This document shows positions 60,853 to 63,483 of a stretch of DNA of 64,000 bases, one piece after another (the stretch's first letter is position 1; every line of letters starts with the position of its first letter). The notes beneath the pieces are model-generated. The model did no database searches and was not told the DNA's origin. It worked only from the letters and a program-made list of their open reading frames with translations. Location of the stretch: assembly GCF_058153355.1 (NCBI RefSeq), contig NZ_CM177019.1. One strand, given 5' to 3'. Position numbers and translations under genes: made by a program.

Positions 60853-61152
60853 ATGAAAAAGAAAAATTCTGGCTTTACTGCCAGCGGCCCCGCTCGGCCT
60901 GAAATCAGACACGGAGATATTTTCCGGGATAACTACGGCGGTACGGTAACGATTAAAGGCGTGGCAGAACGGCGCATCACTTACCGCCGTGAAGGCTACG
61001 ACTATGACTGCGTGATGCCTGTTTATCAGTTCCGGCGTGATTTTTCGCTGGTACAGGCCGCGCCACGCAAACAGTCCACCAGCAGGGAAAAGGCGCGGGC
61101 AAATATTCAGGAAATGAAAAACATGCTTAACGCATTCAGGGGTAAAAAATGA
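60853..61152 (+). CDS. hypothetical protein (99 aa)
   Basis: 4 nt after previous stop; stop overlaps primase ATG (AAAAAATGAAAC); basic C-terminus. Confidence 0.5.
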   Translation: MKKKNSGFTASGPARPEIRHGDIFRDNYGGTVTIKGVAERRITYRREGYDYDCVMPVYQFRRDFSLVQAAPRKQSTSREKARANIQEMKNMLNAFRGKK

Positions 61153-62189
61153 AACTGGCACCGAACGTAAAAAAACAGCCACGCGGAATAAAACACGCTC
61201 AAACCGAAGTGATCATTTTTGCGGGTAGTGATGCCTGGGCACACGCGAAACAGTGGCAGGAACATGACGCGCGTACAGCCGGAGATAATGAGCCTCCTGT
61301 GTGGCTTGGAGAGCAGCAGCTATCCGAACTGGATAATCTGCAAATTGTGCCGGATGGCAGAAAATCAGCACGCATATACAGAGCCGGACATCTTGAGCCT
61401 GTAATGATCAAGGCGATTGGTCAGAAGCTGGCGGCGGCAGGCGTACAGGATGCAGATTTTTACCCTGAGGGAATGCACGGTCAGAAGGTGGAAAACTGGC
61501 GCGAATATCTGGCCCGTGAGCGCCAGAATCTTTCTGATGGTCTGGTGATTGAGCTTCCGGTAACGCAAAAGGCGCAACTTTCGCAGATGGCGGACAGTGA
61601 GCGCGCGCAGCTGCTTGCCGATCGCTTTGATGGCGTTTGCGTGCATCCTGAAAGTGAAATCGTTCACGTATGGCGCGGCGGGGTATGGTGTCCGGTCAGC
61701 ACAATGGAACTGAGCCGCGAAATGGTGGCGGTTTATTCAGAACACGGGGCCACATTCAGCAAGCGGGCAATTAATAACGCCGTTGAAGCGTTAAAAGTTA
61801 TTGCTGACCCGATGGGCGAGCCGTCCGGCGATTTGTTGCCGTTCGCCAATGGTGCGCTTGACCTGAAAACGGGGGAATTTTCCCCGCACACGCCGGAGAA
61901 CTGGATCACCACGCACAACGGCATTGAGTACAGGGCACCAGCACCAGGGGAGAACATCCGCGATAACGCGCCAAACTTTCATAAATGGCTTGAGCACGCA
62001 GCCGGAAAAGACCCGCACAAGATGATGCGCATATGCGCCGCGCTGTACATGATTATGGCGAACCGCCACGACTGGCAGATGTTTATTGAGGCCACCGGAG
62101 ACGGCGGGAGCGGCAAGAGCACTTTCACGCACATAGCCAGCCTTCTGGCAGGGAAACAGAACACGGTAAGGCAGTATGACTTTCCGTGA
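61149..62189 (+). pseudogene. P4-family primase/helicase (D5_N + SF3 helicase P-loop), 3'-truncated just after Walker A
   Basis: LLPFANGALDL...H..WL.....D.....ATGDGGSGKSTFTHIASLLAGKQNT is the primase-C / D5 N-terminal region followed by GxxxxGKS/T Walker A. A complete protein would carry Walker B and motif C; here the frame ends 8 codons later where IS110-family sequence starts. Confidence 0.7.
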
Positions 62190-63483
62190 GACAGATGCTG
62201 GCCAACGTGGGATATTTAACGCGGGTTAACATCGTTGTCAGAGCCGCATGGGTGAGCTGTTGCTACACCCCGGTATTTCCACCACGGAGGCCAGCATGAA
62301 CAACAATAACACATTGTACGTCGGGTTAGATGTTCACAAAGAATCGATTACTGTCGCTTATGCTATCAATTCAGAACCTGTTGAACTGATGGGTAAAATT
62401 GGCACATCACCTACTGATATTCAGAATCTTTGTAAACGTCTCAGGTCAAAGTCATCGCAGGTCAGTATCGTTTATGAAGCGGGGCCCTGTGGTTATGGAC
62501 TTTATCGTCGGCTGGTGAAATCCGGTTTTGACTGCATGGTCTGCGCCCCCTCACTTATCCCGAAAAAACCGGGGGAGCGGGTTAAAACCGATCGCCGTGA
62601 TGCCATCAGACTTGTGCGTTCACTGCGTGCAGGAGATCTTTCTGCTGTCTACGTACCCGGCATTGAAGATGAGGCATTCCGGGATTTGGCCCGGGCATGG
62701 GCATCTGCCCGCGATGATTTACGGCATGCAAGGCAACGTCTGAAATCGTTTCTTCTGGTTCATGGGGTCCATTATGTCGGGCGAGCAGATTGGGGCCCTG
62801 CACACCGACGCTGGCTCAGCAAATACTCATTCGAAAGTCCCTGGCGACAATTAGCTTTTGACGAACACCGTCGTACAATAGAAGACCGGCAGGCACAATG
62901 TGAACGGCTGGAATCCGCCCTGAAGGAGGCCGTTACCGAATGGAGGCTGTATCCGGTAGTAGAGGCGCTGCAAGCCATGCGAGGGATTCAGTTTATTACT
63001 GCGGTTGGATTAATTTCTGAACTGGGTGATCTGACCCGTTTTGAACATCCACGACAACTGATGTCATGGTTTGGTATCACGCCATCAGAATATTCATCGG
63101 GTGGAAGCAGACATCAGGGCAGCATTACCAAAGCCGGAAACAGCTATGCCAGAAAGCTATTGGTCGAGGCAGCGTGGAGTTACCGTCATCCGGCACGCAT
63201 CAGTCCGGCAATACAAAAAAGGCAGGAAAATTTACCCCGCCCCGTCATTGACAGAGCATGGGATGCTCAACTCAGGCTTTGTAAGAGGTATCGAAAACTT
63301 CAGGCCAAAGGAAAGAATGTCAATATTACAATTGTTGCTGTTGCACGTGAGCTGGCGGGTTTTATCTGGGATATGGGCCGAATAGCAATGTCTGTCGCAC
63401 AACAACCACAATGTCACAAATAAAAAATGAGAATAACCAGTTCCCTGAAGGCGACGTAGCCCGGTACAAGAGTAACCCACGTT
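62165..63483 (+). mobile_element. second IS110-family element (not IS621), boundaries approximate
   Basis: Encodes a 375-aa DEDD recombinase; left boundary inferred from the primase truncation point, right boundary from the onset of the tandem repeat array; no terminal inverted repeats, as is typical for the family. Confidence 0.55.
62296..63423 (+). CDS. IS110-family DEDD recombinase (375 aa)
   Basis: GGAGG RBS 8 nt before MNNNNTLYVGLDVHKESITV (catalytic Asp in GLDVHK). C-terminal HPRQLMSWFGITPSEYSSGGSRHQGSITKAGNSYARKLLVEAAW aligns with the IS621 segment [33 protein letters not shown]. Confidence 0.85.
   Translation: MNNNNTLYVGLDVHKESITVAYAINSEPVELMGKIGTSPTDIQNLCKRLRSKSSQVSIVYEAGPCGYGLYRRLVKSGFDCMVCAPSLIPKKPGERVKTDRRDAIRLVRSLRAGDLSAVYVPGIEDEAFRDLARAWASARDDLRHARQRLKSFLLVHGVHYVGRADWGPAHRRWLSKYSFESPWRQLAFDEHRRTIEDRQAQCERLESALKEAVTEWRLYPVVEALQAMRGIQFITAVGLISELGDLTRFEHPRQLMSWFGITPSEYSSGGSRHQGSITKAGNSYARKLLVEAAWSYRHPARISPAIQKRQENLPRPVIDRAWDAQLRLCKRYRKLQAKGKNVNITIVAVARELAGFIWDMGRIAMSVAQQPQCHK

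Follow-up and report, generated by a model that had tools for sequence, protein, structure and literature searches.

RNA-Guided Elements of the IS110 Family

Among insertion sequences (ISs) of the IS110 family, IS621 encodes a DEDD recombinase that recognizes both DNA strands through an RNA guide, and its bridge RNA is housed in a left end of ~190 bp (Durrant 2024; Hiraizumi 2024). Elements of the IS1111 group have short left ends, long right ends, long subterminal inverted repeats (7-17 bp), and a bridge RNA in the right end (Durrant 2024), and the origin of IS1111-family seekRNAs in the downstream non-coding region has been shown experimentally (Siddiquee et al. 2024, PMC11187229). In ISPpu9, the small-RNA module ssr9 forms its own circles, is dispersed, and is dispensable for transposition (PMC12288879). 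The present work concerns ISSso6, an IS1111-group element in a 64,000-nt stretch (the window) of assembly GCF_058153355.1, contig NZ_CM177019.1, where it interrupts the replication gene of a satellite island. All coordinates refer to the window unless another locus is named, and L-numbers denote comparison loci.

It is very probable that this island, which lies at tRNA-Gly(CCC) and resembles the phage-inducible chromosomal islands (PICIs), has had a replication gene of the 584-aa type interrupted by guide-directed insertion of ISSso6. The element entered ...GTAAG/CGCT... (a slash marks the point of insertion or junction throughout) between codons 340 and 342, and the 346-aa product that remains retains D5_N and Walker A; the predicted guide segment AGCGCUU would have paired with the top strand AAG/CGCT, and the left flank recurs as a second segment, CGUAAG. 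The event is of a known kind, namely IS-mediated pseudogenization by a known IS and routine genome decay, and the split gene has already been annotated by RefSeq in Escherichia coli O121 and enteroinvasive E. coli (EIEC) strains. What goes beyond the record is confined to the assignment of guides to the target and the tandem arrays of the guide module.

Interruption of the Replication Gene

The features at the junction are as follows.

61149-62189, + strand: truncated replication gene, 346-aa open reading frame (ORF), P4-alpha-like helicase / 'DNA primase family'
62171-63690, + strand: ISSso6, 1520 bp (+/- 2 nt), 100% identical to RefSeq 'IS110-like element ISSso6'
62175-62188, + strand: left subterminal inverted repeat TATGACTTTCCGTG, partner 63673-63686
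62296-63423, + strand: ISSso6 DEDD transposase / bridge recombinase, 375 aa (PF01548, PF02371)
63673-63686, + strand: right subterminal inverted repeat CACGGAAAGTCATA

The truncated ORF consists of native codons 1-340 (61149-62168) followed by 2 nt of the Ser341 codon, with native sequence ending at 62170. Its C-terminus reads ...GDGGSGKSTFTHIASLLAGKQNTVRQYDFP-stop, in which V340 is the last native residue and the last six codons and stop (RQYDFP-stop) are translated from the left end of the IS. Pfam places D5_N at aa 153-282 of the truncated ORF, and Walker A (GDGGSGKS) occupies aa 317-324. Intact homologues in E. coli FDAARGOS_943 (L003) and CFT073 (L004) are 584 aa long, carry D5_N at 153-283, DUF5906 at 316-417, and Pox_D5 at 487-575, and run on past the break as ...NTVSAEMTSLDD...LIVLADQP...VVLATNN...ARRRV. 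In these homologues D5_N and the superfamily 3 (SF3) P-loop core are complete, while the window copy keeps only D5_N and Walker A, having lost Walker B (LIVLAD), sensor-1 (VVLATNN), the arginine finger (ARRRV), the rest of DUF5906, and Pox_D5. A winged-helix origin-binding domain is likewise present in the intact homologues, where PDB 1KA8 (the P4 alpha origin-binding domain) matches aa 488-576 with an E of 7e-6, and is absent from the window ORF. The satellite would presumably be unable to replicate on its own.

Like P4 alpha and the PICI Pri-Rep proteins, the intact protein combines an SF3 helicase with an origin-binding winged helix (PDB matches 7OLA and 1KA8), and the window gene is preceded by int, alpA, and DUF4222, an order also found in the intact island of CFT073. 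By BLASTP, it is 40% identical to P4 alpha over 432 aa, covering alpha residues 326-756 (E 8e-110). Unlike P4 alpha, the gene has no counterpart of the N-terminal primase domain (alpha residues 1-325), for which BLASTP gave no similarity in the intact homologue; residues 1-142 of the homologue returned no significant P4 alpha match by BLASTP and no Pfam domain. TIGR01613 scores the intact homologue at 106.8 bits against a cut-off of 108.7, and the truncated ORF at 44.6 bits. The label 'P4-type', applied in the initial annotation, is therefore apt for the helicase and origin-binding homology but not for the primase domain or the island, whose layout looks more like that of a PICI.

The break itself is placed by comparison with uninterrupted and interrupted relatives. 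A megablast search of 60500-64000 against 5,426 complete E. coli genomes matched the right part to annotated ISSso6 and returned three genomes in which primase and IS are arranged as in the window. The RefSeq order in E. coli O121 201805972 (L001) and VL40 (L002) is an N-terminal primase fragment, the ISSso6 transposase, and a C-terminal fragment, labelled 'DNA primase family protein, missing C-terminus' and 'primase-like DNA-binding domain-containing protein, missing N-terminus'. The intact junction reads ...AACACAGTAAG/CGCTGAGATG... (also written ACAGTAAGCGCTGAG), the interrupted left junction ...GTAAG/GCAGTATGAC..., and the interrupted right junction ...GTCATATCAG/CGCTGAG...; the uninterrupted ...ACAGTAAG/CGCTGAG... 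has become ...GTAAG[IS]CGCT... without target duplication. Only the dinucleotide AG is common to the flank and the IS end, so the boundaries are uncertain by 1-2 nt, and the left boundary falls at 62169-62171. In five relatives with the same insertion (L001, L002, L005, L007, and L041), the 3' part of the gene lies directly after the IS. With a simple insertion, primase codons 341-584 would be expected beyond 64000 in the genome of the window too, in the form CATATCAG/CGCTGAGATGACATCG (also CATATCAG/CGCTGAGATGACATCGCTTGATG).

Much of what the initial annotation had read from this junction is upheld. The uninterrupted gene, set beside the window copy, bears out truncation by an IS110-family element, the ORF end at RQYDFP-stop is confirmed at 62189 by the ORF and the junction sequences, and the absence of Walker B and motif C is plain against the 584-aa homologues. 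The recombinase does start 107 nt past the ORF stop (ATG 62296, stop 62189), and the left boundary, predicted at 62160-62175, leaves 125 bp before the ATG. Alignment to intact homologues, which it had proposed, puts the break at codons 340/342. The distance from Walker A needed correction, as the break lies 16 codons beyond it (native sequence to V340) rather than eight.

The 346-aa protein might instead be a natural short form, with homologues normally ending at this position. The same ORF is indeed called in three short-read contigs, which were the only matches in a look-up of the exact protein, but all of these contigs end inside the IS left end and the last six codons are IS sequence. Moreover, the intact homologues have 584 aa, and 571 of the 575 E. 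coli genomes carrying the segment give a single contiguous match and are therefore uninterrupted at the site. This reading can be given next to no credence.

The same primase gene carries a second insertion in some E. coli/EIEC relatives, an IS4-family element (IS421 in the L002 annotation) at the equivalent of window 61872/61873. It is found in L002 (~4718-6003), L005, L007 (4259-5552), and L041 (7106-8296), and the gene has been struck twice in these lineages.

ISSso6 as a Member of the IS1111 Group

The interrupting element is ISSso6, a member of the IS1111 group of the IS110 family. Its nucleotide sequence is identical to the RefSeq-annotated copies of the ISfinder element, from which the window copy differs in having at least 1.5 extra tandem 205-bp right-end modules. 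The transposase matches PF01548 (2.6e-11), PF02371 (8.2e-24), and NF033542, 'IS110 family RNA-guided transposase' (273.9 bits; cut-off 140), and its start is the same as in the ISSso6 sequences that Siddiquee 2024 and Durrant 2024 give in their supplements. The left end measures 125 bp and the right end 267 bp, and a perfect 14-bp subterminal repeat lies 4 nt inside each IS end. A supplementary table of Durrant 2024 lists 'ISSso6 RE IS1111', that is, a predicted bridge RNA in the right end. The flanks of at least 15 copies share (G/A)TAAG/CG, which reflects site-specific insertion without target duplication.

ISSso6 has in common with the IS1111 seekRNA elements ISEc11, ISKpn4, and ISPa11 (PMC11187229) the downstream non-coding region, the subterminal repeats, and the lack of target duplication. 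It also resembles them in having two RNA segments, the 5' one matching the top strand and the other the bottom strand, whose matches overlap where the element inserts. It differs in that its guides are assigned by comparison only, and its transposase has 375 aa, as against 330-350, and is ~17-25% identical to other ISfinder members. With IS621 it shares the DEDD recombinase family and RNA-guided recognition of both DNA strands, but the bridge RNA of IS621 is in the left end, whereas the predicted RNA of ISSso6 is in the right end. The initial annotation had correctly seen that the left end, at 125 bp, is shorter than the 192-bp left end of IS621. This length is no anomaly but the norm of the IS1111 group, because ISSso6 belongs to that group, in which the guide RNA is encoded at the right end.

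IS621 itself is also present in the window, as its other IS110-family element, at 6700-8150 beside trhA (tnp 6856-7836, minus strand), 97% identical to RefSeq IS621. A single window therefore holds both the left-end-RNA type (IS621) and the right-end-RNA type (ISSso6), the latter as a clean natural example of IS1111 architecture.

Predicted Guide Segments in the Right End

The right end of ISSso6 contains a structured non-coding region with two predicted guides.

63440-63627, + strand: candidate seekRNA/bridge RNA, structured non-coding right end (closing stem 63440-63460 with 63608-63627)
63484-63490, + strand: predicted guide 1 (T-guide) AGCGCUU, complementary to target top strand AAG/CGCT
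63520-63525, + strand: predicted guide 2 (B-guide) CGUAAG, identical to left flank (N)GTAAG; would pair with the bottom strand

Folding of the whole right end gave -88 kcal/mol (z = -4.7); a 161-nt sub-region gave z = -0.04, and only the full right end is significant. A consensus fold of six related elements contains compensatory changes in the closing stem, and in this fold both guide segments are unpaired, on either side of a small hairpin inside the long closing stem. The relatives compared were a Sodalis remnant (L014), L030 (74% aa identity), and L033, L034, and L036 (43-48% identity), with ends set from their subterminal repeats. The guide segments vary in step with the flanking DNA in five lineages:

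ISSso6: first segment AGCGCUU; junction AAG/CGCT; second segment equal to left flank (C)GTAAG
Sodalis (L014): first segment UACGCUU; junction ../CGTA; left flank not available
L030: first segment CCUGUUU; junction CAAA/CAGGAA (10 nt); second segment equal to left flank GGCAAG
L033/L034: first segment GGCGUUA; junction TAA/CGCC; left flank AACATAG (L033; L034 matches ATAG only)
L036: first segment AGCGUUA; junction TAA/CGCT; second segment equal to left flank TCTAG

In each element the first segment is complementary to its own junction, and the second is identical to the left flank. The segment matching the top strand thus comes first in the RNA, 5' of the one matching the bottom strand, and their matches overlap where the IS inserts, an arrangement that agrees with the description of IS1111 seekRNAs (Siddiquee 2024, PMC11187229). 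The ISSso6 guides are accordingly predicted from this covariation to specify the target (C)GTAAG/CGCT, a concrete and testable assignment that goes beyond the prior record. The primase site (AGTAAG/CGCT in E. coli, GGTAAG in the window) agrees at 9 of 10 positions, among them all seven that the first guide covers, and a GGTAAG/CGCT site occupied in L039 matches equally well. The primase site was thus probably picked by the guide RNA of the IS itself, encoded in the 267-bp right end.

Three earlier guide candidates, CGTCAA (63647), ATATCAGCGT (63578), and UUUACUG (63601), were dropped, as they are invariant between elements with different targets; for these early 6-mer candidates, ~3 6-mer matches are expected by chance.

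Choice Between the Primase Site and IS66-Family Repeats

Most other ISSso6 copies lie within a terminal inverted repeat of an IS66-family element, 5 bp in (GTAAG/CGTCAACGG..., also GTAAG/CGTCAACGGAGCACCG...), among loci L008-L013, L015, L016, L024-L031, L042, and L043. This preference parallels that of IS4321/IS5075, which target the terminal repeats of the Tn21 family. The target sequences are GTAAGCGCT in the primase gene, GTAAGCGTC in the IS66-family repeat, and GTTAGCGCT at a site within the element itself that is discussed below. The right-end sequence is the same in all copies, so both classes of site are served by one guide, and the guide assignment accounts for IS66-family terminal repeats as targets.

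It could be argued that the IS66-family terminal inverted repeat is the true programmed target, and that the primase site is an off-target that just shares GTAAGCG. Where both flanks were read, IS66-family repeats are in fact the commonest sites, with 9 loci against 5 in the primase gene (IS66-repeat loci with both flanks are L008, L010, L012, L013, L024-L027, L029, and L031, some being the same contig fetched twice), and the right flank alone is of the IS66 type at six more (L009, L011, L015, L016, L042, and L043). The pairing points the other way. The AGCGCUU of the shared right end pairs 7/7 with AAG/CGCT, as found in the primase gene and L039, but 5/7 plus a wobble with AAG/CGTC, and in the relatives of ISSso6 the guide matches the right flank exactly. 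An off-target origin of the primase insertion is consequently regarded as quite unlikely. Spread of IS66::ISSso6 composites by IS66 transposition has been considered as a source of the constant right flank.

Several observations weigh against the favored reading of a guide-directed insertion into the primase gene. The IS66-family sites (GTAAG/CGTC) pair with the first guide at only 5/7 positions plus one G.T wobble, and FDAARGOS_943 holds more than 15 copies of ISSso6 and yet has a free, perfect primase site. Guide match alone therefore does not set occupancy, and site occupancy is far from saturating. The assignment of the guides rests on five lineages, of which Sodalis L014, a remnant lacking its left flank, informs the right half only, and when 50000-64000 was scanned with Rfam 15 (E<=1), the IS right end matched no family. 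In L030, L033, L034, and L036, the left junction has G at -1 and the last right-end base is A, with which the guide pairs. This difference suggests either that the IS starts with G and the crossover lies 1 nt further left than the ISSso6 junction alone would place it, or that donor and target cores are mismatched. Lastly, the 3' part of the primase gene, sought by tblastn and blastn, is absent from the window.

One Insertion or Several

The primase allele of the window differs from those of the interrupted relatives. Over the 1020 bp 5' of the IS it is 92.6% identical to L001, and its identity to L002, L005, and L007 is 95.6% in the 298 bp next to the IS, while ISSso6 itself is 100% identical between the window and these relatives. 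The divergence of alleles around an identical IS, together with the perfect guide match, makes it more likely that ISSso6 entered this nucleotide position independently at least twice.

A single ancestral insertion would explain the shared position by ancestry, the interrupted gene having spread by descent, satellite transfer, and recombination. L001, L002, L005, L007, and L041 do share a junction allele (ACAGTAAG) and identical downstream sequence, and IS copies can be homogenized by gene conversion. The window allele, however, departs by 4.4% (298 bp) and 7.4% (1020 bp) around an unchanged IS, the primase site is a perfect match to both predicted guides, and ISSso6 is found at another GGTAAG/CGCT site (L039). 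The guide match would also explain the occupation of the same nucleotide in a distinct primase allele of E. coli, ~7% divergent. Although it carries somewhat more weight than an off-target origin of the primase insertion, a single insertion is considered unlikely, and recurrent insertion is preferred.

Tandem Arrays of the Right-End Module

Past the right end of the IS (63690), the window holds repeats of the right-end module and not primase sequence.

63691-64000, + strand: extra copies of the 205-bp module (unit 63486-63690; copy 2 63691-63895; copy 3 63896-64000, cut by the window end)

Counting the module of the IS itself, there are at least 2.5 copies, all 100% identical, and the array runs off the window. 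Each module junction (...CATATCAG/CGCTTGG...) connects the right end with internal position 63485/63486, exactly in the DNA of the first guide. Because AGCGCT is palindromic, this guide DNA is itself target-like: CACGTTAG/CGCT (GTtAG/CGCT) is a near-target that matches 6/7 positions of the first guide and 5/6 of the second.

An assembly artefact was weighed as the source of the repeat. The identity of the copies would fit such an origin, and the module junction was found neither in the 5,426 complete E. coli genomes nor in IMG/VR or the JGI metagenomes. A 78-aa ORF spanning the junction is nonetheless found exactly in five independent NCBI assemblies, two of them short draft contigs, with two to four units at five different sites. 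In L039 the array (L039 10133-10748) lies at the GGTAAG/CGCT site; in L040 it is in a transketolase gene; in L041 it occupies the same primase site, with CGCTGAGATGACATCG and the remainder of the satellite beyond it; and in L042 and L043 it is in two IS66-family repeats. With the window, this makes six insertion sites, and the junction is always at the palindromic guide DNA (TTAG/CGCT). The tandem array is real and recurrent, and an artefact is very improbable.

Whether the guide-RNA gene of ISSso6 is a substrate of its own recombinase, yielding heritable tandem 205-bp arrays, is to our minds an evenly balanced question. Under such a mechanism, the recombinase would join the right end of the IS to the internal self-target and thereby give rise to tandem modules, either by unequal exchange between sister copies or by nested insertion followed by deletion. 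Either the multi-module element would then stay mobile, or the array event would recur. The nearest published analogue is ISPpu9, another IS110-family element whose downstream small-RNA module is separable and occurs in extra copies; the ISSso6 module differs in being tandem, with its junction exactly at the predicted guide/self-target. If this mechanism holds, it would constitute a natural route to amplify the bridge/seekRNA module or make it separable. The arrays would point to self-targeting by a palindromic guide, with a bearing on the off-target and self-target rules of bridge recombinases.

When the right and left ends are joined in a model of the circle junction (63669-63674 with 62171-62180), TTGACA lies 17 nt 5' of CAGTAT. 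This could be a junction promoter as for IS110-family circles, though it is suggestive only. The tandem junctions are without the -10-like part of this modelled promoter.

The Satellite Island

The remaining features of the island are listed here.

52707-52780, + strand: tRNA-Gly(CCC), left end of the satellite
52906-54309, + strand: tyrosine integrase, near the left end of the satellite
58000-60468, + strand: IS66-family element (orfA, TnpB_IS66, DDE_Tnp_IS66), with 8-bp target duplications CCTTAACC at 57992-57999 and 60469-60476
60853-61152, + strand: DUF4222 gene, directly 5' of the primase gene and overlapping its start, as in intact relatives

From left to right, the island in the window comprises tRNA-Gly(CCC), the integrase, an AntA-domain protein, an Ash-family ORF, the DUF4222 gene, and the primase gene, and the version of the satellite in SRR8656992 (L019) also has AlpA. 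The right half of the island lies beyond the window, and for this half the comparison of layouts uses relatives, in which SSB, PerC, a Phage_cap_E capsid-like gene, and a head-decoration gene (HDPD) follow; in contrast to P4, no psu, sid, or delta was seen there. Core-gene definitions for P4-like satellites and PICIs are available (PMC10085698). Set against the P4-like core (psu, delta, sid, epsilon) and the PICI order (int-alpA-regulation-pri/rep-capsid morphogenesis-terS), the layout is, as judged from gene content and with its right half seen in relatives only, PICI-like rather than P4-like.

An Rfam match to int-alpA RNA (54202-54269, 45.5 bits, above the gathering score) falls at the 3' end of the integrase gene. 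Matches to isrK (57506-57583), C4 antisense RNA (57646-57733), and c4-a1b1 RNA cluster in the region 57493-57733, inside a 539-aa ORF (56357-57976) whose C-terminal part belongs to the Pfam 'Ash' family. This long ORF may be spurious and overlie a P4-type RNA immunity region.

The satellite has been struck by two ISs, the IS66-family element and ISSso6. The satellite in SRR8656992 (L019) lacks the former but is identical in other respects; in the window, the IS66-family element splits a small ORF of ~69 aa that is intact in SRR8656992 (L019 9298-9507). Both terminal repeats of the IS66-family element in the window (GTAAGCGTC... and GTAAGCGGC...) are free of ISSso6.

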